DNA from: an uncultured Bacilli bacterium | GTDB taxonomy: Bacteria; Bacillota_I; Bacilli_A; RF39; UBA660 | Direction of reading: 5' to 3' | DNA length: 64,000 bases | Assembly: GCA_947632115.1 (NCBI GenBank) | Contig: CANROB010000001.1 | Location: 26,161 to 90,160, forward strand | Shown here: positions 2,601-45,155 of the stretch, piece after piece | How positions within the stretch are numbered: the stretch's first letter is position 1 | Layout of the letters: each line of letters opens with the position of its first letter | Notes under the pieces: model-generated | What the model was told of the DNA's origin: nothing | What the model saw: the letters and a program-made list of their open reading frames with translations, nothing else | Database searches by the model: none | Translations under genes and position numbers: made by a program

Positions 2601-2663
2601 CTTCTTTTTTTTCATATTTCTAAAACTTCTTCATATAGTTAAATGAAAGAAAGTAGGGAATAT

Positions 2664-4127
2664 ATGGAAAAAACGGATATTATAAAAAGTATAACAACAA
2701 GAACAGGTGGAGATTTATATTTAGGAGTAGTAGGTGCAGTGAGAACTGGTAAGAGTACCTTTATTAAGAAGTTTATTGAAAATTTGGTAGTACCTAATAT
2801 CAAAGATGAATATGAAAGAAAAAGATGCTTAGATGAAATCCCACAATCTGCACAAGGAAAAACCATTATGACAACAGAACCGAAATTTGTTCCAAGTAGT
2901 GCGGCCATGATTAAAATTGATGATTTCGAAACATCTGTTAGGTTAGTCGATTGCGTAGGTTATGTGATTGATGGGGCTAAGGGATATGAGGATGAAAATG
3001 GACCTAGAATGGTACGTACGCCTTGGTATGATGAAGAGATTCCTTTTGTTGAGGCTGCTGAGATTGGAACTGAAAAAGTGATACGGGATCACTCTAGTAT
3101 TGGAATTGTTGTGACGACAGATGCTTCTTTTGGAGAGATTCCAAGAAGTAGCTATGTAGAGGCAGAAGAAAGAGTGATAGGGGAACTTAAAAGCATTGGA
3201 AAACCCTTTATTGTTCTTTTAAATTCTGCTCATCCAATGTTACCGGAAACAGAAAATTTAGCGAATAAAATGAGGGAAGAATATCAAGTACCTGTTTTAC
3301 CTATTAGCGCTGAAAATTTAAATGAAAAAGATGTATATCAAATTTTAAAAGAAGCATTATACGAATTTCCTGTTTTAGAGGTAGAAGTCAATATGCCAGA
3401 TTGGATTGCTTGTTTAGAGCCTAACAATTGGCTTAAAAAAGTTTATATGGATAAGATTCGTGAAAGTGTTGTAGAAGTAGATAAACTAAGAGATATTGAT
3501 ACCATTACGAGACATTTTGAAGCTTGTGACTATATTACAAAATCTTATATTTCTAATGTAGATACTTCAACAGGGGTTGTGACGATTAATTTACAAGCAA
3601 GTGATGAACTATATAATCAAGTGTTAAAAGAGATTGTTGGTAGAGAAATATCTAGTAGGGCTGACATTATTTCTTTATTCCAAGAATATAATGAGGCAAA
3701 AACAGAGTATGACCATATTAAAGGAGCCCTAGCTATGGTTAAGAAAACGGGTTATGGGGTAGCTAGTCCAACATTACAAGATATGAAATTAGAGACCCCA
3801 GAAGTGATTAAACAGGGAAGCCGTTATGGTATTAAATTAAAAGCCGTTGCGCCTTCCATTCATATGATTCGTGTAGATGTGGAATCTACTTTTGAACCAA
3901 TCATTGGCTCTGAGGTACAGAGTAAAGAATTAATTGATTATCTCATGAAAGATCAAGATAATATATGGAAGAGTGAAATTTTTGGAAGAAGTTTAGATGT
4001 GATTGTAAAAGAAGGAATTCAGGCTAAGATTTCCTTAATGCCAGAAGGAGCACGATATAAACTTCAACAAACGTTATGTAAATTAGTCAATAAAGGATCT
4101 GGTAATTTATTTACTTTAGTCATTTAA
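2664..4127 (+). CDS. spoIVA: Stage IV sporulation protein A (SpoIVA), the spore-coat morphogenetic ATPase.
   Basis: The N-terminus MEKTDIIKSITTRTGGDLYLGVVGAVRTGKSTFIKKFIENLVVPNI matches the SpoIVA signature including the Walker A motif GAVRTGKST. Length is about 490 aa. A start at 2664 (MEK) is preferred over 2643. Confidence 0.85.
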   Translation: MEKTDIIKSITTRTGGDLYLGVVGAVRTGKSTFIKKFIENLVVPNIKDEYERKRCLDEIPQSAQGKTIMTTEPKFVPSSAAMIKIDDFETSVRLVDCVGYVIDGAKGYEDENGPRMVRTPWYDEEIPFVEAAEIGTEKVIRDHSSIGIVVTTDASFGEIPRSSYVEAEERVIGELKSIGKPFIVLLNSAHPMLPETENLANKMREEYQVPVLPISAENLNEKDVYQILKEALYEFPVLEVEVNMPDWIACLEPNNWLKKVYMDKIRESVVEVDKLRDIDTITRHFEACDYITKSYISNVDTSTGVVTINLQASDELYNQVLKEIVGREISSRADIISLFQEYNEAKTEYDHIKGALAMVKKTGYGVASPTLQDMKLETPEVIKQGSRYGIKLKAVAPSIHMIRVDVESTFEPIIGSEVQSKELIDYLMKDQDNIWKSEIFGRSLDVIVKEGIQAKISLMPEGARYKLQQTLCKLVNKGSGNLFTLVI

Positions 4128-4165
4128 AAAGACTTCACATCAATTTGATGTGAAGTCTTTTTTTA
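4128..4165. terminator. Bidirectional rho-independent terminator between the convergent genes spoIVA and ponA.
   Basis: aaaaagacttcacatcaatttgatgtgaagtcttttttt has a perfect 11-bp stem flanked by an A-run and a T-run. Confidence 0.7.
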
Positions 4166-6994: not shown

Positions 6995-7556
6995 TTTTCA
7001 CCTCTATGAATTTTAAATAATCTAGTCTAGGACGTAATCCAAGGGGAATTGCAATTCCGTATTTTTGAAAGTATGTTCTGGGAATGGATTTTCTCTTTTC
7101 TTGATCGATAAAACGAAAAAAATCCTCTCCTTTTAATAAATAAGTTTCATCGTAAGATGTAAAACGTACAATCAAAAATCCAATTCCTCCGTGTTTTATG
7201 ATTCTACGTAAATGAACAATTTGATGTTCATGGATATTGGATAGGGGAAAACTGGTTTTATGAGCTGTTTCTTTGGCCTCAAAATCAATATATTTTCCCT
7301 GATAAATTCCATTATAATCCGTGGTGGATGGAATCGTGAATCTAGCATCTTTAATAATAGCATCTTTTCTTGAAACATAATCCACTTTATGAATCGTAAT
7401 AGGGGTTGGCTTTTTATAAATAATAGCGATATCACTTTCCCGATAATATTCATTTGTTACATTCAAATCTTCTTCAAGCGTCATTCCACGATTGGCATGA
7501 GAAGTAAGAATTTTATATTCTTTTTGAATGCCATTTGGATACTTCACATTCCTCAC
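6978..7556 (-). CDS. recU: Holliday junction resolvase RecU.
   Basis: 192 aa, with FEAKETAHKTSFPLSNIHEHQ matching the RecU catalytic region. It lies immediately upstream of ponA and overlaps it by 17 nt, the same gene order as B. subtilis recU-ponA. Confidence 0.8.
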   Translation of the reverse strand: MRNVKYPNGIQKEYKILTSHANRGMTLEEDLNVTNEYYRESDIAIIYKKPTPITIHKVDYVSRKDAIIKDARFTIPSTTDYNGIYQGKYIDFEAKETAHKTSFPLSNIHEHQIVHLRRIIKHGGIGFLIVRFTSYDETYLLKGEDFFRFIDQEKRKSIPRTYFQKYGIAIPLGLRPRLDYLKFIEVKNETKN

Positions 7557-7652
7557 CTAGAAGTATTATACTATAAATTAAAAATTATTTCCACTTTCCA
7601 CTAGTATTCGACAAATGTTGTTCACACTCTTTTCTATAGTGATATTGAGGTG

Positions 7653-7772
7653 ATGAGTTTGGAAAGAAAAAAACATGTGGAAGAGATGTTTAATACCATG
7701 ATTAATGATGTGAATTATATCAAACTAAGTACTTATCAAATCGGGCAAAAAGATAAACGTAGGAATGTTTGA
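7653..7772 (+). CDS. Possible small ORF (39 aa, MSLERKKHVEEMFNTMINDVNYIKLSTYQIGQKDKRRNV) ending in a terminator hairpin. Very tentative.
   Basis: The ATG at 7653 has GAGGTG immediately upstream, with almost no spacer. The stop is at 7770-7772, inside a 19-bp perfect palindrome followed by a T8 run. It is not in the ORF track because it is under 60 aa. Confidence 0.2.
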   Translation: MSLERKKHVEEMFNTMINDVNYIKLSTYQIGQKDKRRNV

Positions 7773-7790
7773 CAAACATTCTTTTTTTTG
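7762..7790 (+). terminator. A 19-bp perfect palindrome GAATGTTTGACAAACATTC followed by a T8 run. It is an intrinsic terminator and/or an operator overlapping the -35 TTGACA of the gpsB promoter.
   Basis: A perfect inverted repeat ggaatgtttgacaaacattc is followed by ttttttttgagataat, which is a -10-like GATAAT. Confidence 0.45.
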
Positions 7791-7825
7791 AGATAATATG
7801 GAGGAAATAAAGAGAGGTGGATAGT

Positions 7826-8155
7826 ATGTATCAAGATCGAGTTATGCTTACTAGCAAAGATATTCTAGAAAAAGATTTTAAGATTGATACAAGAGGGTAT
7901 CGACCACAAGAAGTAGATCGTTTCCTTGACATGATTATTAAAGATTATGATGAAATGTCAACGATTATCCGCGAGTTAGAAGAAGATAAAAAAGAATTGT
8001 TAGAGGATAATATTCGCTTAAAAAAGGAGGTTCGTAATCTCCGTACGAAGTTAGATGTTATCTCAGAGAATGATTCTGCAGGCGCAAGTGGAGCGAATGC
8101 CGATTTGCTTCGTAGATTATCGAATCTAGAAAAAATAATATATGGAAAAGAATAA
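7826..8155 (+). CDS. gpsB: Cell-cycle protein GpsB (DivIVA-domain).
   Basis: SKDILEKDFKIDTRGYRPQEVDRFLD matches the GpsB/DivIVA N-terminal domain. It is adjacent to rnpB and recU as in B. subtilis. The ATG at 7826 has a GAGGTGG RBS. Confidence 0.8.
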   Translation: MYQDRVMLTSKDILEKDFKIDTRGYRPQEVDRFLDMIIKDYDEMSTIIRELEEDKKELLEDNIRLKKEVRNLRTKLDVISENDSAGASGANADLLRRLSNLEKIIYGKE

Positions 8156-8511
8156 TATTTCAGGCAAACGCTGTATAGGATACTATATAGAGGAAAGTCC
8201 ATGCTCGCACAGTCTGTAATGATTGTAGTGTTCGTGTAGGGGGAAAAAATAACCCCTAGTAGCAATTGCTAACGGCTCTGGAAAGACCTAAGTTTTTAAA
8301 TATGGTTAAGTACAGTATAAAAGTGCTATAGCGACGATGCCCTAGAGAAATTTAGGGAGTGGAACGTAGTAAACCCCGCGAGCGAGAAACCCAAATTTTG
8401 GTAGGGGAGCTCTAATGAAGGAAAAAAACGGAGTTAGGGACCAAGCAATTGGTAGATAAATGTTTGCCACCCTAGTGGTACAGAACATGGCTTAGGAAGT
8501 GTTATTATTTT
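8148..8511 (+). ncRNA. rnpB: RNase P RNA, bacterial type B.
   Basis: Conserved P4 strand GAGGAAAGUCCAUGCUCGCAC at 8189-8210. Also present are AGUAAACCCCGCGAGCGAGAAACCCAAAUUUUGGUAGGGGA and the 3' ACAGAACAUGGCUUA. It is located directly after gpsB as in B. subtilis. Confidence 0.85.
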
Positions 8512-8529
8512 AGAATTGAGGTTTTTCAA

Positions 8530-9030
8530 ATGAAGGAGATAGGAGAGAAGTTACAAGAGGCAAGAGTCAGTATGGGAATTTCCATTGAAGAGGCAGCAGA
8601 AGATTTAAAACTGAAACCATCTCAACTAGAAAATATCGAAGCAGGAAATCGAGATGCCTTCAAAGATATTTTTTATTTGAAATATTTTATTCGTGATTAT
8701 GCGAAATATTTAGGACTAGATTATGAAGAAATGGTAGAAGATTTTAACGAGTTTGTTTTTGATTATACTTCTAAGATATCGCTAGAGGATATCAAAAAAG
8801 CGAATAAGAAAAGTGAAAAAAAACAAGCTAAGAAAAAAATTTCTTCTCCTTATACAGTAGAGGAAAAACAAAAAAGACCAATGCTCTTTTTTGGGATTGT
8901 AAGTGCTCTTATTTTACTTATTTGTATAGGAATTTTTATTGCAATTGTTGCCTTTAAAGATAAAAATGGCGATAATGAGGTCAACGATATTAATTCTAAG
9001 ACAGAAGTCTCTTATGAATTGGTGGGATAA
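8530..9030 (+). CDS. rodZ: RodZ-like cytoskeleton protein: an N-terminal XRE-type HTH plus a single TM segment, in a short form.
   Basis: The HTH is LQEARVSMGISIEEAAEDLKLKPSQLENIE and the TM is LFFGIVSALILLICIGIFIAIVAF. It is located upstream of pgsA as ymfM/rodZ is in B. subtilis. Confidence 0.55.
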   Translation: MKEIGEKLQEARVSMGISIEEAAEDLKLKPSQLENIEAGNRDAFKDIFYLKYFIRDYAKYLGLDYEEMVEDFNEFVFDYTSKISLEDIKKANKKSEKKQAKKKISSPYTVEEKQKRPMLFFGIVSALILLICIGIFIAIVAFKDKNGDNEVNDINSKTEVSYELVG

Positions 9031-9031
9031 T

Positions 9032-9658
9032 ATGAGAAAAAGAGAGATAAAAAAGGAAAATAGTATTTGGAATTTGCCAAATAAAATTACGATTGCTAGA
9101 ATTATCTTATCTTTTGTTATTGTCGTAATTTTAGTTCTTCCCCTTGATATGATGGGGATAGAGGTTCCAAAACTTTTTATATCAGAAAAAATTGTAGTAG
9201 ATATTAAATATATGGTAGCAGGGGTACTTTTTATCATTGCTTCCTTAACTGATTTTCTAGATGGACATATTGCAAGAAGTAGAAATCTAGTTACGGATTT
9301 TGGAAAAATGATAGATGCTATTGCCGATAAAATGTTAGTAAATTCGGTATTAATTATTTTAGCCTCAGCAGGATTTATTCATCCTATTATTCCTGTTATT
9401 ATTGTCATGAGAGATAGTGTTGTGAATACGATTAAGATGATTGCTGGTAGCAAGGGAAAAGTCGTTGCTGCGATTAAATCTGGAAAGTTAAAAACAGCCT
9501 GTCTTATGGTAGGAATTACGCTTACTTTATTTTATAACTTACCATTTGAACTTTACAATTTACGAGTTTCTGATTTTCTACTCTTTTTAGCAGCTATTTT
9601 ATCTTTAGTTTCTTGTCTACAATATTACAATATGAATAAGGATTTATTATTTGAATAA
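9032..9658 (+). CDS. pgsA: CDP-diacylglycerol--glycerol-3-phosphate 3-phosphatidyltransferase.
   Basis: The CDP-alcohol phosphatidyltransferase motif is DFLDGHIARSRNLVTDFGKMIDAIADK, and the N-terminus NLPNKITIARI is typical. The ATG at 9032 has a GGTGGG RBS. Start 8939 in the ORF track is a spurious extension. Confidence 0.85.
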   Translation: MRKREIKKENSIWNLPNKITIARIILSFVIVVILVLPLDMMGIEVPKLFISEKIVVDIKYMVAGVLFIIASLTDFLDGHIARSRNLVTDFGKMIDAIADKMLVNSVLIILASAGFIHPIIPVIIVMRDSVVNTIKMIAGSKGKVVAAIKSGKLKTACLMVGITLTLFYNLPFELYNLRVSDFLLFLAAILSLVSCLQYYNMNKDLLFE

Positions 9659-9713
9659 ATCCTTTTTTTGTTCTAAAGAGAAACATCTTACATACTTATT
9701 AATAGGTGGTTAG

Positions 9714-10244
9714 ATGAAAATTACATCTTTTTTCTTTCGAACGCTTATAACCATTGTTTTAAGTCTTTTGGTTCTAATTGGAATGAAAGGAAACTCTCAT
9801 TTTAAAGAACTTGTTTATCAAAATGTCTATGAGAAGAGTTTTCCTTTTTTAAAGGTTGGTGTTTGGTATCAAAATCTTTTTGGTTCTCCTTTTCCTTTTG
9901 AAAAATATATGAAGACAAAAGCTACTTTTCAAGAGACTCTTACTTATCAAAAGAAAGAGAATTATCTAGAGGGAGTAAAACTAACGATAGAAGATACGTA
10001 TCCTATTCCCGTTTTACAGGATGGATTAGTTGTCTTTGTAGGGGAGAAAGAAGATTACGGGAAGGTTGTTATTGTAGAACAGCTAGATGGCGTTGATTGT
10101 TGGTATGGAAATTTATCTAGTAGTACGGTAAAACTTTATGATTATGTAGAAGCAGGAAGTCTTCTTGGGGTAGCGGAAAAAAATCTTTATTTGGTCTATA
10201 AAAAAGATGGGGTTGCACTTCCGTATGAAGAATATTCCCTTTAA
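9714..10244 (+). CDS. spoIVFA: SpoIVFA-like protein, a membrane-anchored degenerate M23/LytM-domain protein.
   Basis: There is an N-terminal TM segment, and the C-terminus DGLVVFVGEKEDYGKVVIVEQLDGVDCWYGNL resembles a degenerate LytM fold. It is immediately upstream of and overlapping the S2P protease gene, like the B. subtilis spoIVFA-spoIVFB pair. Confidence 0.5.
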   Translation: MKITSFFFRTLITIVLSLLVLIGMKGNSHFKELVYQNVYEKSFPFLKVGVWYQNLFGSPFPFEKYMKTKATFQETLTYQKKENYLEGVKLTIEDTYPIPVLQDGLVVFVGEKEDYGKVVIVEQLDGVDCWYGNLSSSTVKLYDYVEAGSLLGVAEKNLYLVYKKDGVALPYEEYSL

Positions 10245-10950
10245 AATAAAATTTCATCCTCTTTTTTATCTTCTTTTATTACTTGCTATCGTAACAGCTC
10301 AATTTCAAAAAGTAATAGAGTTCATGATGATTATTTTGATTCATGAGTTAGGACATATTAGTGTCGCATCCCTTTTCCATTGGAAGGTAAAAAGGGTTCT
10401 CATTCTTCCATTTGGCGGAATGGTAGAATTAGAAGAAAAATTAAATCGTCCCATTTATCAGGAATTTTTAATTGCGATAGCAGGACCGATGACCCAAACA
10501 CTTTTTTCTTTCTTTTATCTAAGTAAGTTTCACTATCCCTTACTTTTTTTTAATTTACTTCCTATCTATCCTCTAGATGGAGCAAAAATCCTTTTTTTAC
10601 TTTTCAATCTTTTTACTAGTTATTATCATAGTTATCTTATTTTATTTTTTTGTTCTTCTTTTACTATTTTTTTGCTTCTTTTGAAAGATCCTAATTTATT
10701 TAATTTTATTTTCTTTTCCTATTTACTCTACCAAAATATTCGGCTGTTGGGGTCTACCCCAGAACTTTTTTTAAAGTTTTTATTTGAGCGGTATCAAGAG
10801 GACTTTTTTTTCTATCAAAAAAAGAAAATTATAGGGGCTAAGTTTAAGAAAATGAAAAGAGATGTGAGACACTTTTTTATGATAGAGGGAAAATTATATG
10901 AAGAACAGGAGGCTTTAGGTACTTTTTTCTTTCAAAAATTGAAAAAATAA
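10225..10950 (+). CDS. spoIVFB: Site-2 metalloprotease, M50 family, SpoIVFB-like pro-sigma-K processing enzyme.
   Basis: HExxH motif IHELGHIS is present, as is NxxPxxxLDG (NLLPIYPLDGAKI), and the protein is polytopic. It sits upstream of rplU as in B. subtilis. Confidence 0.7.
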   Translation: MKNIPFKIKFHPLFYLLLLLAIVTAQFQKVIEFMMIILIHELGHISVASLFHWKVKRVLILPFGGMVELEEKLNRPIYQEFLIAIAGPMTQTLFSFFYLSKFHYPLLFFNLLPIYPLDGAKILFLLFNLFTSYYHSYLILFFCSSFTIFLLLLKDPNLFNFIFFSYLLYQNIRLLGSTPELFLKFLFERYQEDFFFYQKKKIIGAKFKKMKRDVRHFFMIEGKLYEEQEALGTFFFQKLKK

Positions 10951-11022
10951 AAGGGATATGATATAATCAAACTTAAGTTGACGGGCAAATACTAGAGGAA
11001 AAAATATTGTGGCGGTGAGGAA

Positions 11023-14000
11023 ATGAAAGAAAAAGAAAAAAAGAGTATAAATAGGAGAAAATGGGCTGTAAGAATTGCTGTAATAATAGGCATTCTTTTA
11101 TTGTTTCTCCTTTTATGTTTTTGTGGAAGAAAAGATTACGGTGTTTCTTTTCAGATTGGCGATAACATATATACCATGGTCAATATTCGCCAAGGTGGGA
11201 AAGTGGAGGAACCAGAAGCTCCAACCAAAGAGGGATATACTTTCCAAGGATGGTATTGGAATGATAAAAAATTCGATTTTAATTCCGAGATTACAAAAGA
11301 TGTTATTTTAGAGGCTCGGTTTGAAGAAAACATTTATACGGTTACCGTGGATGATGGAAATGGAAATCAAATAGAATTACAAGCAAAGCATAAAGAGGCT
11401 ATTCCAGAACCAAAAGTGGGTGAAAAAAGTGGATACTATTTTGCTGGATGGTATGTTGATGGAGAAGAATTCCATTTTGAAGATGGTGTCACAGAAGATA
11501 CTCAGGTAGAGGGAAAATGGGCTCTTAATGAACATGCACTTTATCGGGTAGAACACTATTTACAAGAAAAAGATGGAACGTACTCTAAAACTTATAAAGA
11601 TATTGAAATTTTAGATGGGAAAACCAATAGTACGGTTACTCCTGCTACGCACACGTATCGTGGGTATCAAACACCAAGTAAGAAAAGTGTGAAAGTAGAA
11701 GCTGACGGTACAACAATCGTAAAATACTATTATTCTCTTAAAACTTATACGTTGGTAGTAGTAGGTGGAGCAGGAATTGATTCTGTAAGCGGAAGTGGAA
11801 AATACTACTACGGGGATAAAGTCAAGATCGGTTATACTTTAAAGGATGGATATCATTTTAGTGGCTATAGTAAGTCTTTAAATGATGATATTTTTACGAT
11901 GCCAGATGAAAATGTTGGAATAGAAGTAAAAGCAGAGGCTAACACAGATACCCCTTACCGAGTAGAACATTATTTACAAAATACGGACGGTAGTTATCCT
12001 GAAACCCCACAAGATGTAGATCATTTAACTGGTACAACAGATACGAAAGTAACTCCTAATACAAAAACATATACGGGGTTTACGGCTCCCGAAGAACAAG
12101 AAGTAGTAATTGATGGCAAGGGAACAACCATTATTAAGTATTGCTATACTAGAAATCAATATCAATTAACACTACAGACCTCTAAAGGGGTAGAAAAAGT
12201 TACTGGAACAGGTACTTACTACTATGGGGAAGAAGTAACCGTTTCTTATGACTTAAAACTAGGATATTCATTCGTTTCTTGGAAACAAGAAGGAACGGAA
12301 GAAACAATTTCTCAAAATACAATCACAATGCCTGCAACAGATATCACATTAACAGCTATGGCTAAGGCAGAAAAAGTCAATTATCATGTAATTCATTATA
12401 CAAAAGATTTAAAGAGCGAAACCTATACACAATATAAAGATGAGATATTAGAAGGAATAACAGATACGAAAGTAACTCCAAGTACTCTTACAATTCCAGG
12501 ATTTACTGCTCCTAAAACAGAAACGAAAACTGTTTCAGGGGATGGAACAACAGTGATTGAATATCGTTATGATAGAAATAAATATCATGTTACTGTAAAT
12601 GCCGGCGTTGGTATTTTAAATACAACTGGAACAGGCGATTATGAATTTGAGGAAGAGGTAGAGATAACTGCTACTTTAAAACCAGGATATCATGATATTT
12701 CATGGCCAAAAGAAGTAACAGTAGGTGAAAAAACGACTGTAAAGGTCCCAGTAGATGGTATGGATATAACAGCAACTGCCACCCCAAATTCAGCTACTCC
12801 ATACACGGTAAAACATTACTATATGGATGTTGATGGTAAGTATCCAGAAGAACCATTAACTTTATTGTATTCTGGAACAACAGATACTATCGTAGAAGCA
12901 CCATTACAATCTAAAGATGGATTTACTTCTCCAGCACAACAACAAATAACTATTACTGGTGATGGATTAGCGTCTATAGAATATAGATATCCAAGAAATC
13001 AATATACAGTAACGATTGAAAAAACTACTCCAGGAGTAGAATCTCTTAATAAAACAGAAATAAAAGATATTTACTTTGGAAGCACTGTAGAACTATCTAT
13101 TGAGGATATTGCTAATTGGTCTACAGGATATGAGTTTGATAAATGGTCTTATGAAAAAACAGAATCTACAGAAGAAACGCTTACTTTTGAGATGCCATCT
13201 CATGATGTAACTGTAACAGTAGTACCTAAAAAAATTCCATATAAGGTTAGTTTTGAATCAGAAAATCCATATCGTGAAAAAGTAAAACCGCAAACTTATT
13301 ATTATGGAGATAAGATTACTAAAATTAGTGAAGGACAATGGCCACATCATGATTTCCAAGGCTGGTATTTAAAAGAATCTGATGGTAACTTATCAGATAC
13401 TGCTTGGGATTTTGATAAAGATACTATGCCTAATTCGGACATTACCTTAGTGGCAAAATGGAAAATCCATAATGGTACTTTGAACTTTGTATTTGGATTT
13501 GAAAAAGAATATAAAGAATTTGCAGGTGTAGCTTATGGAACAACTGTCAAAGATTTATTAAGTTCTAAATTAGAAGATACTACTAGATATGAAGCACCAA
13601 CTCATAAAGGATATATTTTCTTAGGATGGTATAAATCAACGAAATTCCAAGAAAGTGAAAAAGTAGATAACATTTTAGAATATGCAATGCCAGATAATGA
13701 AGGTGTTACATTATATGCTAAATGGAGACCTATTGAATATACAATAGAATTTATGCCAAATGGTGGGGAAGAAGTAGAACATGTAAAACAAGAAAGAATT
13801 TATGAGGATACTACTTTCTTATATCATCATGATTATCATGAAGAAGATATTGTTAAAGTCCCACTAGAAAAGAATACATATACCAGAAAAGGTTATACAT
13901 TTAAAGGTTGGTCAACTAATAAAGATGCAACGAAAGAAGAATATACGGATCAACAACCTGTCGGAAATATGGCTGATCAAGATAATGAAAATATTCAACT

Positions 14001-16899
14001 CTATGCAGTATGGGCACCTAATACTTATACAGTAGAGTATGATGTAAATAAAGGAAATGGAAGTTCTACTCCAACTCCTGATACCATTGCACCAACAACT
14101 CATACTTATGATGAAATAAGTGATTTAACAAAGACTACTGTCACAAGAGAAGGATATGACCTCTTAGGATGGAGTAAAACAAAGCATGAAACTTCACAAG
14201 ATAGTTGTGAGGATTGCGTTAAAAATGCCAATAATTTAGCAACCGGAGAAAAAGGTGATGAAAAGGTTACTTTATATGCAGTATGGAAAGCACATACTTA
14301 TACAGTAACTTATGATGCTAATAAAGGAAACGGAACTTCTGAACCTTCTGGAAAAGTAGATGATACAACTCATACTTATGATGGTCATGAAAAATTATCA
14401 TCTAATCAATATTCAAGAGATGGATACACTTTTAAAGGTTGGGCTACTAAAGCAGAAGCTACTGAAGCAGAATATCAACCAGGAAATGAAATTCCTAACT
14501 TAACAAGTGATGAAGCAACAGTAACTTTATATGCAGTATGGGCACCTAATACTTATACAGTAATTTACGATGCTAATGTTCCTGAAACTTCTGTAAGTAA
14601 AGCTACAGGAACCGTAAATAACACAACCCATATCTATGATGTAGAATCAGTATTATCGAGTGATGAATATACGAGAACAGGATATAAATTCTTAGGTTGG
14701 TCTACTAATAAAAATGCGACTAATGCAGATTATCAACCAGGAGTAACAGTTTCTACTTTAACACCAAGTGAAAATATTACATTATATGCTGTATGGGAAA
14801 AAATAACTTATGCCGTTACATTTGATGACAAATTTGGAACTAAATCTTCAAAAAATTATACTGTTGAAGATAGCGTTACTTTCCTTGATCCAGTAAGTCA
14901 TGATGGTTATACATTTAAAGGTTGGTATGAAAAAGGAACTGAAACAAAAGTAGACAATATTCCAAAAGGAACTACTAGAAGTTATGACTTAGAAGCAAAA
15001 TGGGAAACTGTTCCTTATAACATCAAATATGAAGGGTTAACTTATGAGGGTAGTGTATCTCAAGGAACTGTACCAGAGGATGCTAAAAGGACCTATACCG
15101 TAGTAGATGAAACTTATACTTTACCAACACCAACAAGGAATGGTTATACATTTGATGGTTGGTATACAACCAATAATTATCAAGATGGAACGAAAGTAAC
15201 TTCTATTACGACAGGATCAACAGGAGAAAAAACATTCTATGCAAAATGGATAATAGAGACATATAAAATTACCCTTGTTGATAAGACCCTTGGAACTTCA
15301 TCAAATGCTTCCTATAACATTGAGGAAGGAGCCACTTTAACACCACAAGGTATTCAAGGTGGATATACCTTTGATGGATGGTATGAAAGTGAAACTTTTA
15401 CTGGTAGTCCAGTAGACAATATTTCAAAAGGAACAACAGGAGAGAAAACTTACTATGCTAAGAGAACTGGAATTTCCTATACTGTTATCTATAGTAAAGA
15501 CGGAAATTCAAAAGATAAAACGGAAATATTTGTCTTTGGTGATAAACATACAGCAGCCGTTGCAGATACGATTAAAAATCCATATACAGTAACATTTGAT
15601 GTTGCTGGTGGAAAAACTGTAGATGCCAAAACTGTAAATGCTACTGTAAAGACATGGAAGGTAAAAGATTCTAGTGATGATAAAACATATGCATCAGGTA
15701 CTGAAATGGCAGATTTAATTACTCCAACACAAACAGGACAAACCGTTACTTTGGTACCGAAAGATTGGAATTATCCAACAGTGGAATTGCCATCTACTAC
15801 AAAAGATGCCGATAATGAGCATTATGTAGAGTACCAATTTGACGGATGGTATAAAGAAAGTCAAAAACAAGATACTTCTATTACTGTAACAAGTGACTTA
15901 CAATTAACTGCTCATTGGAAGAATATCGTAGATACTGATAAGTATATTAATGACAATATTCAAGATCCTACTTATTTTACTTCTACATTAAGCAGTACTA
16001 ATGTTACAGCAGATATTATTCAAGTTAATGAAAAAATAACTACTGTATTAACAGAAAGTGGAGACTACGTCACTTATATGAAAAAATTATTAACTACTCC
16101 AGGAGTAAAAACTGTTACATTAAAATATAACTCCACTACTTATACAGTAACTAAAGATAATATTTATTCAGAACTAAAGAAATTAGCAAAGGCAATGACA
16201 GATACATCTAAAGAGACATCTGAAGAGAATAGAAAATTAAGTTCTCTTTATAGTTCTACTACACCAAAGAAATTTACCATTCAAATTGACGTAGATAACA
16301 ATTCTCTTTTAAAAGGTAGAACAGGAAGTAGTGTTACTTATACGACTACATTTACTAGTAAGAAAGTAGAATCTAATAGCCACTTCTTATCTCTTAGTAA
16401 TAAAGTTACCAACAACACCAATGGACATATTAATTCCCATAGAACAACCCATTATGAATTACTCGTTGATGGAAGCAATTTAACCTTGAAATATGTTGAT
16501 CCAAATGCTACTTTAGCGACTGCAAGTTCTGGAGGTTTATCTGGAGCAGGAATTAAAACTGCTTTCTGGGATATTTTAGGAGAACCAACCAATTTAACCG
16601 CTTATCCATATACATTTGTAGAGTCTCTACACCTAGTTTTCGTTGGAAAAAAGACAATGGATATTACAACTAAACCAGAGAATGTGGCAGATAATGCATG
16701 GACTAGTTATGCACTAGGTTTAGCTGGAGATTTAGGAACAGCTTTAGGAAAAGGTATGTTTGGGTTTTTATCATTAAAAAATTCTGATTTGGCAGGATTA
16801 TCTGTAACTGTTACGCTTAATGTAAGAAGTGACTGGGCATTAGAAGATGACTTTAAATACCCACTAGAATATACAATTACATTTGGTCCTAGATCATAA
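11023..16899 (+). CDS. Giant (1958 aa) type-II membrane-anchored surface protein with tandem Listeria-Bacteroides (Flg_new) repeats and a conserved C-terminal domain of unknown function. This is paralog 1.
   Basis: The N-terminus has a basic cytoplasmic tail plus a TM segment (VRIAVIIGILLLFLLLCF). More than 20 repeats of G(Y/W)xFxGW(Y/S)...LYA(K/V)W are present, along with six modules of about 135 aa beginning YRVEHYLQ..DG.Y. The last roughly 300 aa (…IKTAFWDILG…RSDWALEDDFKYPLEYTITF) are shared with the two downstream paralogs. Confidence 0.8.
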   Translation: MKEKEKKSINRRKWAVRIAVIIGILLLFLLLCFCGRKDYGVSFQIGDNIYTMVNIRQGGKVEEPEAPTKEGYTFQGWYWNDKKFDFNSEITKDVILEARFEENIYTVTVDDGNGNQIELQAKHKEAIPEPKVGEKSGYYFAGWYVDGEEFHFEDGVTEDTQVEGKWALNEHALYRVEHYLQEKDGTYSKTYKDIEILDGKTNSTVTPATHTYRGYQTPSKKSVKVEADGTTIVKYYYSLKTYTLVVVGGAGIDSVSGSGKYYYGDKVKIGYTLKDGYHFSGYSKSLNDDIFTMPDENVGIEVKAEANTDTPYRVEHYLQNTDGSYPETPQDVDHLTGTTDTKVTPNTKTYTGFTAPEEQEVVIDGKGTTIIKYCYTRNQYQLTLQTSKGVEKVTGTGTYYYGEEVTVSYDLKLGYSFVSWKQEGTEETISQNTITMPATDITLTAMAKAEKVNYHVIHYTKDLKSETYTQYKDEILEGITDTKVTPSTLTIPGFTAPKTETKTVSGDGTTVIEYRYDRNKYHVTVNAGVGILNTTGTGDYEFEEEVEITATLKPGYHDISWPKEVTVGEKTTVKVPVDGMDITATATPNSATPYTVKHYYMDVDGKYPEEPLTLLYSGTTDTIVEAPLQSKDGFTSPAQQQITITGDGLASIEYRYPRNQYTVTIEKTTPGVESLNKTEIKDIYFGSTVELSIEDIANWSTGYEFDKWSYEKTESTEETLTFEMPSHDVTVTVVPKKIPYKVSFESENPYREKVKPQTYYYGDKITKISEGQWPHHDFQGWYLKESDGNLSDTAWDFDKDTMPNSDITLVAKWKIHNGTLNFVFGFEKEYKEFAGVAYGTTVKDLLSSKLEDTTRYEAPTHKGYIFLGWYKSTKFQESEKVDNILEYAMPDNEGVTLYAKWRPIEYTIEFMPNGGEEVEHVKQERIYEDTTFLYHHDYHEEDIVKVPLEKNTYTRKGYTFKGWSTNKDATKEEYTDQQPVGNMADQDNENIQLYAVWAPNTYTVEYDVNKGNGSSTPTPDTIAPTTHTYDEISDLTKTTVTREGYDLLGWSKTKHETSQDSCEDCVKNANNLATGEKGDEKVTLYAVWKAHTYTVTYDANKGNGTSEPSGKVDDTTHTYDGHEKLSSNQYSRDGYTFKGWATKAEATEAEYQPGNEIPNLTSDEATVTLYAVWAPNTYTVIYDANVPETSVSKATGTVNNTTHIYDVESVLSSDEYTRTGYKFLGWSTNKNATNADYQPGVTVSTLTPSENITLYAVWEKITYAVTFDDKFGTKSSKNYTVEDSVTFLDPVSHDGYTFKGWYEKGTETKVDNIPKGTTRSYDLEAKWETVPYNIKYEGLTYEGSVSQGTVPEDAKRTYTVVDETYTLPTPTRNGYTFDGWYTTNNYQDGTKVTSITTGSTGEKTFYAKWIIETYKITLVDKTLGTSSNASYNIEEGATLTPQGIQGGYTFDGWYESETFTGSPVDNISKGTTGEKTYYAKRTGISYTVIYSKDGNSKDKTEIFVFGDKHTAAVADTIKNPYTVTFDVAGGKTVDAKTVNATVKTWKVKDSSDDKTYASGTEMADLITPTQTGQTVTLVPKDWNYPTVELPSTTKDADNEHYVEYQFDGWYKESQKQDTSITVTSDLQLTAHWKNIVDTDKYINDNIQDPTYFTSTLSSTNVTADIIQVNEKITTVLTESGDYVTYMKKLLTTPGVKTVTLKYNSTTYTVTKDNIYSELKKLAKAMTDTSKETSEENRKLSSLYSSTTPKKFTIQIDVDNNSLLKGRTGSSVTYTTTFTSKKVESNSHFLSLSNKVTNNTNGHINSHRTTHYELLVDGSNLTLKYVDPNATLATASSGGLSGAGIKTAFWDILGEPTNLTAYPYTFVESLHLVFVGKKTMDITTKPENVADNAWTSYALGLAGDLGTALGKGMFGFLSLKNSDLAGLSVTVTLNVRSDWALEDDFKYPLEYTITFGPRS
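13999..14790 (+). repeat. Three tandem units of about 261 bp with high nucleotide identity inside paralog 1 (the Flg_new repeats were recently amplified).
   Basis: The motif ttatatgcagtatgggcacctaatacttatacagta recurs at about 13999, 14272, 14527 and 14783. Confidence 0.7.
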
Positions 16900-16907
16900 T
16901 AAACGAA

Positions 16908-16946
16908 AAAATCTAATTCAAATTGAATTAGATTTTTCTTTTTTAA
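16908..16946. terminator. Bidirectional intrinsic terminator between paralog 1 and the inverted orphan cassette.
   Basis: aaaaaatctaattcaaattgaattagatttttctttttt has a 10-bp stem with an A-run and a T-run. Confidence 0.65.
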
Positions 16947-17026
16947 TATTTCAACCGCACCACTTTATTTAGAAAATTAAATTTCTTTCTTAATAATGAA
17001 TATTTAATGATTCAAAAGATGCTTTA

Positions 17027-18285
17027 TTATGATTGTAACTTACTATCAGCTTTTTTCCTAAATATTAGCGTATAATCCATTGGATAAGTAAAATCGTCTG
17101 CGAGTTCCCAGTCAGGACGAATCTCTAGATGAATTTCCACAGTAGAACCTGCTGTTTGCGCATTAGAACTACTAGTTAAATTACCAAATTTTTTCAAAAG
17201 TTGACTCATCTTTCCAGAAAGAACTAATGCCCATTTGTCTGTAGCGTATAAATCAGTAGGAATAAATTCCACATCACTACTGCTACTTTTATCAGGTGGC
17301 ATATAAGTCATTTGTATTTTTCCAATAGGCGTATTTGGGAAAGGACCGCCTTCATCTGTTGCTGTTAAAGCAGTATTTCCTAACAAATTCCAAAATGCTG
17401 TTTTAAAACCTCTTTCCATAGCAACATCTGCAAGAGAAGAGTTTTCAATTCCAACATGATACTCTAAATATATATTTGGATCTTTCTCTGTTGGCAAGGT
17501 TAAATAATAACCATACTTCCAACCAGATGTTTCTTTCTTTTGATAATTTGAAATGATATTGTTAGCAATTTTAGAACTAAAATTTTGCCAATATGCATTG
17601 GTTACCACATGATTTGTTGCTGCAAAAGAAACAGTATAAATAATCTTTGAAGATTTATTTTTTGATATGATAGAATCTTCACTTGCAACAACTTTTAAGG
17701 TAAACTTTTTTCCATTTAGAGAGCTTAACTTTCTATCGGATGTATTCTCAGCTTTAGATGTGTTTGTCATAGCTGTAAATAATTCCTTAATTTTCTCATA
17801 TACATTATCATTTGTTACATTTCCTTTATTTAAAGTAATCGTTGTTTTAGAGCCAGTTGTATCACTATATTCTAACACAATGGACTGTACTCCCGATGCC
17901 TCTAGTAATTTCTTGGTAGAATTTATAAGACTACTAGTATTAGTAATGACATCGTCCACTTTTTTATAAGCTGCTTGAATATCAATTTTTAAATTTTGAT
18001 TTGTCATTGTAGGTAAATTATAAATAGTTCCTTGTGTCTCACTATAGCTACAACTATATGTTTTTGTAAAAAATCCAGATGATGTACATTTTTCTTCTAG
18101 TATGTTACCTGTGTTGTTTTTCCAACTATCATTAATATACGTATCGGTATCAATAACATTTTTCCATTTTGCTACTAATTTTATATTATTAGTAACTGGC
18201 ATTTGTTCTGTCCACTTTGTATTTTCTTGATACCATCCATCAAGCTGGTACTCTACATAATGCTCATTATCGGAATTTCTTTAAA
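17027..18285 (-). pseudogene. Orphan 3' cassette: a promoterless, inverted, 5'-truncated paralog of the C-terminal roughly 400 aa of the giant surface protein (Flg_new repeat end plus the conserved C-terminal domain).
   Basis: The minus-strand frame is open from an in-frame TAA at 18288-18286 down to the stop at 17027. Homology to paralog 1 starts abruptly: ..SDNEHYVEYQLDGWYQENTKW.. in the cassette versus ..DADNEHYVEYQFDGWYKESQKQ.. in paralog 1 (nt 15810 onward). It begins with a 26-nt identical core gataatgagcattatgtagagtacca. There is no signal/TM segment, and the ATG at 18202 lies inside a repeat with no good RBS. The C-terminus GFKTAFWNLLG…RPDWELADDFTYPMDYTLIF matches the other two paralogs. 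Confidence 0.55.
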
Positions 18286-18310
18286 AAAGTCGGTTTTTGT
18301 TGACAAAATA

Positions 18311-18339
18311 TAGACAAAATTTAAGAATCGTGTATAATA
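18311..18339 (+). promoter_or_regulatory. Sigma-A-type promoter for paralog 3 (TAGACA, 17-nt spacer, TATAAT).
   Basis: -35 tagaca at 18311-18316 and -10 tataat at 18334-18339. An alternative TTGACA at 18300 has too long a spacer. Confidence 0.4.
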
Positions 18340-18388
18340 ATGAGGTAGGAGTGGTAGGCTCCAAAATTTAGGGGAAAAAGGAAGGAGA

Positions 18389-21300
18389 ATGTTTGTGAGC
18401 AATGAAGATAATAAGAAAAAGCAAACAGGAAATAGACGTGTAAATAGTAAGTCTAATACTACGAAAAATACTGCTAATGCTAAAAACACTGCAAATAATG
18501 TAAGTAGTAAACCTCCTGTTGCTAGAGAGATTAGTGCTAATCAAACACCGAAAAGAGAACCTAGTTCTATTCGTCAAGAAGTTGCTGTTCCAAAGAAGAA
18601 AAAATCAAATGGAAAAGCGATAGAGTTAGGAGTTATCTTTATTCTATTGGTTGTGTTAATTCTTCTCTTATTGTCATTCTGCCATAAGGATAGCTATGAA
18701 GTATCTTTTATGTCTGACGGAAAAGAATATACTTCAGATACAGTTCGTAAAGGTAGCGACTTAGAAGAACCAGAAGCTCCTACAAAAGAGGGATATAAAT
18801 TCTTAGGTTGGTATCTTGATGGTGAAAAGTATGATTTCAGTAAAGAAGTAACAAAAGATATGAAGCTCGAAGCAAAATGGCAAATCAATACCTATACTGT
18901 AACAATTGATGACGGTATGGGAAATGTTACAAAACAAGAAATAGAGTATAATCAAAAAGTAAAAGAACCATCCGTTTCTGAGAGAAAAGGATATCATTTA
19001 GATGGATGGTATGTAAAAAATAATAAATTCGATTTTAGCAAAGGAATTAAAGAGGATATCACTATCGAAGCAAGATGGCTTGAAAACGAGAAAGTAAGTT
19101 ATCGTGTAGAGCATTATCTTATGGGATTAGATGGAGAATATGACTCTTATGATAAAGTAGATTTACTATCAGAGTATAAAGGAAGTACGGTTACCCCTAG
19201 TACGCATAATTATACTGGATTTAAGACTCCTAGTAGAACTACCGTTGAATTAGCAGATGATGGAAGCACGGTTGTTAAATATTATTATTCTAGAAATAAA
19301 TATACCTTAACCTTAAAAGGCGATGAGGGTGTTTCTTCTCTTAAAGGAAAAGGAACTTATTACTATGGTGAAAAAGTCACTGTTGATGCGAGTGTTAAAG
19401 AAGGATTTAAATTTGCTGGTTGGTCTTCTAAAGTAGTAAAAGGAAACTATACTATGCCAGCATCTAATGTTACTTTAACAGCGAAAACTAATCCAATTGA
19501 GTATACGATTGTTTATACCGATGGTGTGAATGTTAAAGAAGAAAAACATAAATATACGGATGTCTTCCAATTAGCTGGTGGAGATTTATTCCAAAAAGAA
19601 TATCGTATTAGTTATGATTATGGATACGGTAGTACAGTTGATGTAGAATCACCAAAAGCTACTTATGATAGTTGGATTCAAGATGAAAACATGACTTATG
19701 ATTTAGAGGAGAAAGTATCTAAATTAACGACAGTAGATGGAGATAAAATTACTCTTACTTTAAAATGGAGTTATCCAACTCTTAAGACTATCGAAAGAGA
19801 TTATTATGATTTCTTGGGATGGGTAGATAAAGAGGGAAATCCTGTTACTGAGATTAATGAAAAAACGCCACAAAATTTAGAACTTACGGCTACTTGGAAA
19901 GTATCTAATAATACGATTGTCTTTGAATCAAATGGTGGATCTTTTGTTACACCTTTAACCGGAGAAACTGGTGATCCTGTAGAGAAACCTAAAGATCCAA
20001 CAAGAGTAGGATACACATTTGCGGGATGGTATAGTGATTCAGAACTTAGTCAAGAATATGAATTTACAACCATTCCAGAAGAAGGAATTACGGTTTATGC
20101 TAAATGGGATATTATTCATTATAATTTAACATTTGATGAAACTTCTTATGAAAAGTGTGAAGACTGTGATTCTGTACCTAACACTTACACCGTAGAAGAT
20201 GAACCAATTCAGTTACCAACACCAGTAAAAGAAGGATATACTTTTGCAGGATGGGCTTACGAAGTAGAAAATGATGAAACAGGAGAAAAGGAAGAAGTAA
20301 ATGTAGGTACAAAGTTTACTGTTCGTCCAGAGAATACTGAGTTAAAGGCTATTTGGACATACGAATTAGTTCTTGATCCTAAGGGTGGTACTTTAGTAGA
20401 AGGAAAAGAAGTACCAACGATTACTTTCTACTATGGAAAAGATAATAGCATTCCAACCGGTGATTTTTATGAAAAAGAAATCAAAGTTACTTGGAAGTTT
20501 GATGAAAGTAACCAAACAGTAGATACTTATCACCCAACAGTAAAATGTTGGAAAGTAGGAGAGTCTTGTTACACGCCAGGACAAACAGTAAATAATACTT
20601 TTACTCCTGTTAATGGCAAAGTAACACTAGAAGCTACTTATGAAGTTACCATTGAAAAGTTAAAGACAGGAACCAAAGAAGGAAAAGTTCTTGGTGATTG
20701 GTTAAAAGAAGAGGAAAAAGTAACAGAACCTCTTAAGGTATCAGAAGATACAGTTTTAACTGCTAAATGGTATGATGAAATGACTTTAAAAACTTTTGAT
20801 GAGAAAATAAAAGCTACTTTAAGTGATTTTACGACTAGTGTAAATACGAAGACCAATACCGTTTTTGTAGAGGCAGAAGAAAATAAAAAGGCCACCGAAG
20901 GTTTAGAAAATCTTGTAAAAAATATTGCTTCATTAATTAAAGATGCGACGGTTGATGAAATCGATCTTATCTATGGCGGAGAAACTTTTGCCTTAGATAC
21001 GAACAATGATGAGTCTATTACTACTGCCATAAAGAATGCGCTTAATAAAATATTAAATACTCAGAATAATAATCTTGACAGTAAGACAATGAAAGATTTA
21101 GATGGAAAAGAAATTTCTGTCAAAGTTACTTTAGGGGATGAATACAGAACTTCTTCTGGAGCAAAAGAATTTACTTATCATCTTCACTTTGGTAAGAAGG
21201 CTATTGCTAGTGAAACATTTAATGCAGCTGCTAAAAACATTATGGAAAGTAATATCAATAGTCAAGGAAAGAAATTAGAGAAATACATATTATCTGTTCA

Positions 21301-21766
21301 GGATAATCAATTAACATTCTCTTTCTATCATGGCACAAATACAGTATATGAGACTTGTATGAGTGCTGGATTAAAGACTGCTTTCCAAAATCTATTTAAG
21401 ATAGAGGGAATTGAATATGTTACTTTAACATTTACAAATCCATCTGGAAAAGTCATGACGGTAGATGCAAATGCTGATAATGTTTCAGAAGCTCATTGGT
21501 TAGACTTTGCTATTGGCTTCTTAGATCCGTTTGAAGAAGCTATTGGAAAAGATGCTTTTAAACTAACGAATGATGATTTAAAGTTATTTACAGAGACAAA
21601 AGGAGCTCTTATGGTAGAGGTACATACTTCTCCTGATTACAAGTTTGGAGAAGGATTTACGAAAGTAGAAACGGATAAAGAGGATGGTACCCAATACCTT
21701 TCTTATGAAATTAAGTTTGCGCCAGTACAAACAGAATCAGCTCCTAATGCAGGAGAAGGAAACTAG
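18389..21766 (+). CDS. Giant (1125 aa) type-II membrane-anchored Flg_new-repeat surface protein, paralog 3, with the same conserved C-terminal domain.
   Basis: There is a 90-aa basic cytoplasmic tail and a TM segment LGVIFILLVVLILLLLSF. EEPEAPTKEGYKFLGWY is identical to paralog 1 over 11 aa. Flg_new repeats and YRVEHYL modules are present. The C-terminus is GLKTAFQNLF…SPDYKFGEGFTKVE…YEIKF. Confidence 0.8.
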   Translation: MFVSNEDNKKKQTGNRRVNSKSNTTKNTANAKNTANNVSSKPPVAREISANQTPKREPSSIRQEVAVPKKKKSNGKAIELGVIFILLVVLILLLLSFCHKDSYEVSFMSDGKEYTSDTVRKGSDLEEPEAPTKEGYKFLGWYLDGEKYDFSKEVTKDMKLEAKWQINTYTVTIDDGMGNVTKQEIEYNQKVKEPSVSERKGYHLDGWYVKNNKFDFSKGIKEDITIEARWLENEKVSYRVEHYLMGLDGEYDSYDKVDLLSEYKGSTVTPSTHNYTGFKTPSRTTVELADDGSTVVKYYYSRNKYTLTLKGDEGVSSLKGKGTYYYGEKVTVDASVKEGFKFAGWSSKVVKGNYTMPASNVTLTAKTNPIEYTIVYTDGVNVKEEKHKYTDVFQLAGGDLFQKEYRISYDYGYGSTVDVESPKATYDSWIQDENMTYDLEEKVSKLTTVDGDKITLTLKWSYPTLKTIERDYYDFLGWVDKEGNPVTEINEKTPQNLELTATWKVSNNTIVFESNGGSFVTPLTGETGDPVEKPKDPTRVGYTFAGWYSDSELSQEYEFTTIPEEGITVYAKWDIIHYNLTFDETSYEKCEDCDSVPNTYTVEDEPIQLPTPVKEGYTFAGWAYEVENDETGEKEEVNVGTKFTVRPENTELKAIWTYELVLDPKGGTLVEGKEVPTITFYYGKDNSIPTGDFYEKEIKVTWKFDESNQTVDTYHPTVKCWKVGESCYTPGQTVNNTFTPVNGKVTLEATYEVTIEKLKTGTKEGKVLGDWLKEEEKVTEPLKVSEDTVLTAKWYDEMTLKTFDEKIKATLSDFTTSVNTKTNTVFVEAEENKKATEGLENLVKNIASLIKDATVDEIDLIYGGETFALDTNNDESITTAIKNALNKILNTQNNNLDSKTMKDLDGKEISVKVTLGDEYRTSSGAKEFTYHLHFGKKAIASETFNAAAKNIMESNINSQGKKLEKYILSVQDNQLTFSFYHGTNTVYETCMSAGLKTAFQNLFKIEGIEYVTLTFTNPSGKVMTVDANADNVSEAHWLDFAIGFLDPFEEAIGKDAFKLTNDDLKLFTETKGALMVEVHTSPDYKFGEGFTKVETDKEDGTQYLSYEIKFAPVQTESAPNAGEGN

Positions 21767-36324: not shown

Positions 36325-36383
36325 TCATCAACTCTTTTTTCACGTCTTTGGGACTTTAACATAAGATATATTGAGGTGTTCTT

Positions 36384-45154: not shown

Positions 45155-45155
45155 A

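Follow-up and report, generated by a model that had tools for sequence, protein, structure and literature searches.

An inverted, start-less tip cassette beside a giant Flg_new-repeat surface-protein gene of a rabbit-gut Bacilli bacterium: a probable C-terminal switching locus

Why should the gene of a giant surface protein be followed, tail to tail, by a long reverse-strand open reading frame (ORF) that resembles its own 3′ end and has no start of its own? The question is raised by a 64,000-nucleotide stretch from an uncultured Bacilli bacterium (assembly GCA_947632115.1, contig CANROB010000001.1, positions 26,161 to 90,160), referred to here as the window, which is chromosomal DNA of a low-G+C (about 31–35%) spore-forming Firmicute. 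The expression-site gene, P1, ends in a C-terminal domain (tip A), and a promoterless cassette encoding an alternative domain (tip B) lies beyond it in inverted orientation. An earlier inspection of the letters alone (the sequence-only reading) proposed that the two form a C-terminal switching system. Our analysis points the same way: the locus is probably a gene-altering inverton, of the partial intergenic and shufflon-like kind, which swaps the membrane-distal tip of the protein. The anatomy of the locus and the exchange of tips at the junction among relatives bear the proposal out, and the part of it that concerned ongoing or programmed inversion in this organism found no such support. The features on which the argument depends are listed below, with coordinates in the window.

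11023–16899, + strand: expression-site gene P1, 1958 residues (ORF list, translation and Pfam).
15809–15836, + strand: left core of the inverted repeat, 28 nt, in frame (..A DNEHYVEYQ), an exact match to 18273–18246.
15837–16899, + strand: tip A, the currently expressed C-terminal domain of P1; the sister-species orthologue is silent and inverted.
15837–18245, no strand: putative invertible segment of 2409 bp (tip A, shared terminator and inverted tip B), bounded by the two cores.
16907–16937, no strand: shared bidirectional intrinsic-terminator hairpin (A-run, 14-bp stem, 3-nt loop, T-run), from folding.
17027–18280, − strand: silent tip B cassette, an open frame of 417 codons (translation and alignment to P1).
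18246–18273, − strand: right core of the inverted repeat, 28 nt, an exact match to the left core.
18281–18283, − strand: in-frame TAA closing the cassette frame at its 5′ boundary; this edge is orthologous in the sister species.
18300–18338, + strand: promoter-like hexamers of P2, TTGACA/TAGACA...TATAAT (11/12 and 10/12 matches in the scan), conserved in the sister metagenome-assembled genome (MAG).
18389–21766, + strand: paralogue P2, 1125 residues, of the same family and with its own tip; it has no core copy and apparently does not participate.

P1 consists of an N-terminal hydrophobic membrane anchor, a stalk of ~1600 residues built from Flg_new/Flg_new_2 repeats (11023–15808) and then tip A. 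The Flg_new model (PF09479) matches P1 with an E-value of 8.7e-94 and 308 bits over at least 12 stretches, together with PF18998 (Flg_new_2), and it matches P2 with 199 bits over six stretches; both proteins carry tandem PF09479/PF18998 repeats above the gathering threshold. The core of the inverted repeat is located in the second half of the last Flg_new repeat of P1. The perfect repeat is the 28-nt sequence CCGATAATGAGCATTATGTAGAGTACCA, at 15809–15836 on the forward strand and 18273–18246 on the reverse strand. The sequence-only reading had recognized the sharp break at this junction, which stands; its length of 26 nt falls short of the 28 nt found, and its minus-strand position of 18285–18260 is displaced by about 12 nt. 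Allowing up to three mismatches, exactly two copies of the core occur in 64 kb, versus 0.00 expected from 100 shuffles. The ~120 nt that follow the core are about 73% identical, in agreement with the drop to roughly 70% noticed earlier, and a repeat search gives 66-nt arms at 85%. The synonymous sites of tips A and B are saturated, with a proportion of synonymous differences (pS) of 0.71 in the next 41 codons and a synonymous divergence (dS) of about 1.1 over the whole tip. The core also holds the dyad ATAATG-AG-CATTAT (ATAATGNGCATTAT); its counterpart in the sister species, ATAATGCGCATTAT, is palindromic without a mismatch over 14 bp. Such a dyad may serve a recombinase as its site, or it may arise by coincidence from the codons for DN(E/A)HY.

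The cassette is not organized as an ordinary gene. Its frame opens at codon 18280–18278, directly after the TAA at 18283–18281, closes with a stop at 17029–17027 and runs for 417 codons without a stop in DNA of ~31% G+C. It begins RNS-DNEHYVEYQLDGWY... and aligns from its first codons to P1 residues 1597–1958 with 39% amino-acid identity. The first ATG, GTG or TTG in the frame is the ATG at 18202, which gives a 391-residue ORF. At the 5′ end of the cassette there is no promoter, ribosome-binding site (RBS) or start codon, and by eye no signal peptide, transmembrane (TM) segment or convincing Shine–Dalgarno sequence. Translation, alignment and inspection thus confirm the earlier description of an abnormal minus-strand frame, homologous to P1 1597–1958, that opens after a TAA and lacks a signal or TM segment and a credible promoter or RBS; the frame boundary alone shifts, from 18285 to 18280. 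The promoter region of P2 directly abuts the 5′ edge of the cassette and belongs to the fixed flank outside the putative invertible segment. We also considered P2 as a third exchange partner and rejected it, since it has no core copy and its C-terminus is merely 24% identical to tip B.

The region between the two tips suits either orientation. The hairpin at 16907–16937 folds the same on both strands (z about −2.7), and it accounts for the one Rfam match on the locus, a sub-threshold match to a small RNA. The terminator works both ways, so that either tip would be properly terminated. Termination between the tips had been expected from 'convergent terminators', and what we find is one shared bidirectional element in place of two. 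The distance between the convergent coding sequences (CDSs) is short, 127 nt, and one inverted repeat lies inside the complete CDS while the other is at the 5′ edge of the truncated paralogous CDS. When 15837–18245 is inverted in silico, an in-frame stalk–tip B ORF of 2010 residues results, with the junction ...TTKDADNEHYVEYQLDGWYQEN...; it ends in TAATAA about 90 nt ahead of the shared terminator, and tip A lands behind the TAA. The sequence-only reading had this geometry right: a stalk that is expressed, a core present in both copies and, in inverted orientation, an alternative tip without a promoter. The predicted flipped junctions read ...AAAGATGCC-core-GCTTGATGG... and ...AAGAAATTCC-core-ATTTGACGG..., and the present junctions lie within 15780–15870 and 18210–18300.

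In the proposed mechanism, reciprocal recombination within the 28-bp repeats would invert 15837–18245. The inversion would put tip B in frame behind stalk codon 1596, for a protein of 2010 residues, and tip A would come to rest behind the TAA beside the P2 promoter flank. The outcome would be a changed membrane-distal domain, which is presumably ligand- or antigen-determining. We infer that the exchange is an inversion still occurring within populations and serving surface variation.

To see how the tips are placed in relatives, we compared the window with the sister MAG GCA_947628235.1 (L002/L006), which is syntenic with it at 73–81% nucleotide identity. In window orientation, the sister gene order is CDP-OH transferase, M23, M50, a stalk gene of 2203 residues, genes of 108 and 339 residues, an inverted cassette, the P2 orthologue and L21. 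The silent cassette of the sister is the orthologue of window tip A: it is inverted, 80% identical in nucleotides and includes the terminator hairpin (L002rc 9961–11103 to window 16937–15800). The expressed tip of the sister is A-like for ~170 codons and then continues into an unrelated distal part (tip X). The sister inverted repeat is longer, 522 nt at 94.8% identity (L002rc 7296–7817 / 10582–11103), and starts at the same position as the window core. The outer flank of the cassette on the P2-promoter side (AATTTTGTCTATATTT[T/C]GTCAACAAAAA...) is orthologous in window and sister, with the same boundary. With this flank and the cassette edge both orthologous, the truncated cassette is older than the split between window and sister. 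In the third lineage (ERZ27249462 NODE_124, L011), whose flanks are 84% identical to window 2606–12177, the P1 orthologue has 2693 residues, and its expressed tip opens with a sequence that matches the silent tip B of the window at 86% identity over the first 148 nt of tip B. The likeness to tip B is confined to this start, since the rest of the tip shares only about 30% identity with it. Thus, the tips have swapped positions: tip A is expressed in the window and silent and inverted in the sister, and in the third lineage the expression site holds a tip that starts like tip B.

The core itself behaves differently between genomes and within them. Within the window, the left and right copies differ at 0 of 28 sites in the core and at 27 of the next 60; within the sister, the corresponding counts are 0/28 and 2/60. 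Between window and sister, the core differs at 4 of 28 sites, and the next 60 nt are not comparable, as a 3-nt indel inflates the ungapped count. The right copy of the window and its orthologue in the third lineage differ at 4/28 and 9/60, and the sister and the third lineage at 8/28 and 32–33/60. The divergence of the core between lineages is thus like that of its surroundings, while both copies are identical within each genome, in the window even though one copy leads into tip A and the other into tip B, whose sequences are otherwise saturated. This combination indicates recombination between the copies, whether crossover or conversion, later than the separation of the lineages. Judged from these alignments, the core has undergone concerted evolution since the lineage split, and this is independent of any assembly across the repeats. 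Protein constraint on DNEHYVEYQ was tried as the cause of core identity and rejected, because family members differ (QETYLEYE, TDSYLTYE and NTYLISN) and the orthologous cores differ at 4 of 28 sites.

The silent frames are intact in both the window and the sister, and their substitutions are also informative. Between the window and a second strain (L009), tip B has six synonymous and three non-synonymous changes, an omega (dN/dS, the ratio of non-synonymous to synonymous divergence) of 0.12 from small counts. The expressed tip A and its silent sister copy give dS 0.60, dN 0.14 and omega 0.23; the values for the stalk and P2 are both 0.36. Intact silent cassettes with omega 0.12–0.23 point to purifying selection and are unlike a cassette that is never expressed.

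Related sequences on record are few. The exact 391-residue ORF is found on the ENA contig ERZ27249309 NODE_8355 (100% identical to window 15175–19788) and on a 117.5-kb NCBI contig. A one-genome-per-species scan with a five-sequence tip alignment returned three loci only, all from 'uncultured Bacilli bacterium' rabbit-gut MAGs named Lapin-0xx, and a degenerate pattern of the core had no match in the JGI metagenomes, a negative of little power because the organism is absent from them. A 391-residue tip-only protein from another sample (P0026) was considered as a second example of the cassette and rejected; its contig carries same-strand fragmented genes.

A number of observations weigh against the inverton reading. 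First, the orientation is the same in all three assemblies of the window species (the window, L001 and L009). The chimeric stalk–core–tip B junction had 0 exact matches in the genome contigs and JGI metagenome contigs, and protein searches gave no stalk–tip B fusion protein on record; the window species is barely present in those collections, so these two negatives carry little power. Two of the three loci of the one-genome-per-species scan (L007 and L008, more distant relatives) have no inverted cassette, so the architecture is no general feature of this family of proteins. A further difference is seen in the second strain, L009, which shares 98.9% identity and the silent-site junction with the window: within its positions 808–878, at the equivalent of window position 17528, tip B gives way to unrelated DNA that has a GAGG-N6-ATG start (MNNDIIRKIEDYNKNENV...). 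An insertion or replacement in the cassette, hinting at decay, may account for the break, or else the contig, at 2x, may be a chimera. No tyrosine or serine recombinase and no transposase-like invertase came up when Pfam was run on the ORFs of 150 residues or more in the 64-kb window and the sister locus. Finally, an identity of 28 bp is at the lower limit, marginal, for RecA-dependent exchange.

A single contig shows the other arrangement, and its reading is also double-edged. ENA contig ERZ27249068 NODE_7647 (L003, 3.7 kb, 2.2x) is 99.2–99.5% identical to the sister MAG, but its P2 flank leads across the repeat into tip X and the pair of small genes, which is the inverted configuration relative to that MAG. 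Wherever the two arms of the 522-nt repeat can be told apart, the contig has the variants of the P2 side, and the switch comes only in the identical stretch of 57 nt at the innermost end; the crossover is thus at the inner end of the repeat and not at the short core. These 57 nt are close to what we take to be the assembler's largest k-mer (55, the metaSPAdes default). A join of this length at 2.2x may therefore be a misjoin by a de Bruijn assembler, which adds to the points against inversion. The contig is suggestive as evidence for flipping, and a homologous crossover at the inner end would also give it. The sequence-only reading had looked to strain comparison for alternative arrangements: in the window species none appears, with three of three assemblies alike, and in the sister this one flipped contig answers to it, with the misjoin as a possible cause.

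Regarding the catalyst, two recombination-related genes were found in the window.

1686–2600, + strand: PDDEXK_2 gene (Rpn-like, PD-(D/E)XK nuclease family transposase-like), next to spoIVA (Pfam).
6978–7556: recU (Pfam).

They are the sole such genes found there, and the Pfam scans agree with the earlier statement that the immediate locus has no recombinase and that an Rpn gene lies 14 kb away. The catalyst may be a recombinase whose gene lies elsewhere and whose target is the dyad-bearing core, or the exchange may go by homologous recombination of the RecA type. The 522-nt repeat of the sister and the inner-end crossover there favour homologous recombination.

The rival that survives best is that the cassette is an evolutionary relic, the non-functional remnant of a 5′-truncated paralogue, in which one or a few rare homologous exchanges long ago produced the identical core and shifted the tips between sites, and no switching takes place on ecological time scales. 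The missing recombinase in the window and the sister locus, the single orientation of the three assemblies, the truncation or replacement of tip B at 17528 in L009, the loci of L007 and L008 without a cassette and the possible misassembly of NODE_7647 all fit this explanation. It is less easily reconciled with a stop-free frame of 417 codons in 31% G+C DNA and with the omega of 0.12–0.23 in cassettes at silent positions. The core was homogenised independently in two lineages, the boundary of the cassette has been retained since before they split, and the bidirectional terminator serves either tip. We consider the relic unlikely, although it is the rival to be taken most seriously.

The inverton reading also has a stronger form, in which the 28-bp dyad site is targeted by a distant recombinase or by an efficient recombinase-independent pathway. 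Tip switching would then be programmed and reversible, and the segment would also co-switch cargo, such as the pair of genes with the helix-turn-helix (HTH) protein in the sister. This form seems to us quite unlikely.

In the next rival, the cassette is a silent donor for gene conversion, copied non-reciprocally into the expression site with no inversion, as in pilS/pilE or vls. Mosaic tips do exist, as in the sister, where the expressed tip is A-like for ~170 codons and then unrelated, and conversion could also make the cores identical. However, there is one cassette only, and no tract extends past 28 nt in the window, where 27 differences in 60 nt follow at once. Tip A is expressed in one genome and silent in another, whose expression site holds a different tip, which fits reciprocal exchange and not copying; the inverted orientation and the shared bidirectional terminator likewise suit inversion. 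Conversion is therefore an improbable account of the locus. The least of the rivals, a stand-alone gene expressed independently from ATG 18202, can point to its annotation by gene callers, to a low dN/dS compatible with expression and to weak minus-strand promoter-like matches (9–10 of 12 positions), but it is very improbable, because the paralogue homology extends 26 codons upstream of that ATG, up to the TAA, the start falls in the middle of a Flg_new half-repeat, the 5′ end shows by eye none of the signals described above, and promoter-like matches in the scan are no commoner than in shuffled sequence (17 found versus 16.9 expected).

No Pfam model matches the tip domain in scans of tip A and the cassette, and a protein search with the cassette minus its Flg_new half-repeat returned its own cluster only. 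A PDB profile search with the tip gave only weak, chance-level matches to REV1 (best E 0.0016), and an AlphaFold2 model of tip A from a three-sequence alignment is unusable, with a predicted local distance difference test (pLDDT) score of 50.4. Among 1.84 billion representative proteins, a profile search picked out about twenty clusters that have the complete tip, which is nearly always C-terminal on long Flg_new proteins. In the sister, the 522-nt repeat ends at a conserved KKFT(I/L) motif, beyond which the tips are unrelated; this suggests that the tip is modular, with proximal and distal halves and a second recombination-prone boundary at KKFT(I/L). The P1 stalk contains five tandem units of 255–288 nt at 13695–14832 (+ strand), with 61–82% DNA identity; they are in frame, so length change by slippage or recombination could occur. 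In P2, the N-terminus (18389–18700, + strand) places ~75 Lys/Asn-rich residues ahead of the TM helix, a long cytoplasmic tail absent from P1.

The relatives carry additional genes near the tips. In the sister, the two small genes lie between the tips (L002 8354–9701, equal to L002rc 8614–9961). The 108-residue product has no Pfam match, and the 339-residue product has an N-terminal XRE-type HTH and, by eye, a HEISH metallopeptidase-like motif; the pair may be a toxin–antitoxin-like cargo that flips with the tip. Directly downstream of the 2693-residue orthologue, the third lineage has an element of the IS3 family (rve transposase, ORFs of 96 and 263 residues; L011 18194–19317). The contig ends at this element, and the expected silent-cassette region is unassembled.

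Elsewhere in the window, the housekeeping genes include those for SpoIVA, a class A penicillin-binding protein, RecU, Fpg, NrdD, L21, Mur ligases and MraY. Two adjacent Mur-ligase paralogues (455 and 434 residues), each with complete Mur_ligase/M/C domains, are encoded upstream of mraY at 34957–37688 (+ strand). The leucyl-tRNA synthetase (LeuRS) of 951 residues (45114–47969, + strand) has a NUDIX domain (PF00293, residues 392–515, E 7.5e-14) right after the editing domain, which is unusual for LeuRS. At 48692–50546 (+ strand), a sortase gene comes after that of a SpaA/prealbumin-fold protein with a thioester domain (TED), an arrangement that resembles a separate adhesin or pilin locus dependent on sortase.

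More than 11,000 gene-altering programmed inversions or 'partial intergenic invertons' have been predicted across bacteria (PMC9881135; bioRxiv 10.1101/2023.03.11.532203). Their strongest predictor is one CDS that lacks everything up to the repeat, and validated gene-altering inversions are enriched for one CDS cut off at the inverted repeat, a small gap between the CDSs and an orientation that places the two repeats near each other (Milman et al. 2023, PMC9881135). Recombinases are enriched beside such loci and are not universal (PMC9881135; Chanin et al., bioRxiv 10.1101/2023.03.11.532203). The fit of the present locus is qualitative: a full CDS faces a start-less paralogue tail to tail, which holds the repeats near each other, the inverted repeats are in coding sequence and the CDS distance is 127 nt. 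It differs in the lack of a nearby recombinase and in its setting, a giant Flg_new-repeat protein of rabbit-gut Bacilli, and it is described here from assemblies. The locus would thus be a further case of a known mechanism, in which the host and the protein are what is unusual.

Individual systems resemble it to different degrees. In tfpQ/tfpI of Moraxella bovis and M. lacunata (Piv) and in the G segment of phage Mu and the C segment of phage P1 (Gin/Cin), a segment of ~2–3 kb with ~26–34-bp inverted repeats in coding sequence holds two convergent 3′ parts. Either C-terminal part can thereby follow the constant N-terminal part, as is proposed here. Piv is a DEDD-type enzyme and Gin/Cin are serine invertases; they are encoded beside the segment, with a defined site and enhancer architecture, in contrast to our locus, where no adjacent invertase gene was found. 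The serine invertases (Hin/Gin/Cin) are encoded next to their sites, which are imperfect palindromes of ~26 bp around a crossover core of 2 bp, and these systems have an enhancer; the 28-nt core described here holds a dyad that may be a coincidence of coding, and no invertase gene was found. The R64 shufflon, which also exchanges the C-terminal end of a surface protein (the PilV adhesin) by inversion, has several segments, 19-bp sfx repeats and the adjacent tyrosine recombinase gene rci, whereas the present locus has a single segment, two copies of an unrelated 28-bp core and no rci. In the sap system of Campylobacter fetus, S-layer gene inversions are recA-dependent, and a promoter-bearing segment flips between complete homologues that share a conserved 5′ region of ~600 bp. 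Paralogous surface genes that share a junction and have no adjacent dedicated invertase are common to both, which makes sap the best analogue if RecA is the catalyst; the differences are the core of 28 bp (522 bp in the sister) and the exchange of the 3′ tip only. Lastly, Neisseria pilE/pilS and Borrelia vlsE use non-reciprocal conversion from many cassettes. They share with our locus a promoterless, 5′-truncated cassette near the expression site and mosaic tips among relatives, but here there is one inverted cassette and the evidence is for reciprocal positional exchange.

Core identity within genomes, set against divergence between them, is a read-free signature of recombination sites that is applicable to MAGs generally. 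If the inverton reading is true, a Gram-positive Flg_new-repeat adhesin would be added to the gene-altering invertons, one without an adjacent recombinase, and the case would bear on the choice between a trans-acting invertase and RecA. If the segment flips in vivo, the tip of a 2000-residue surface fibre would be changed and its stalk left unchanged. This feature would provide bet-hedging for adhesion specificity, or evasion of antibodies or phages.

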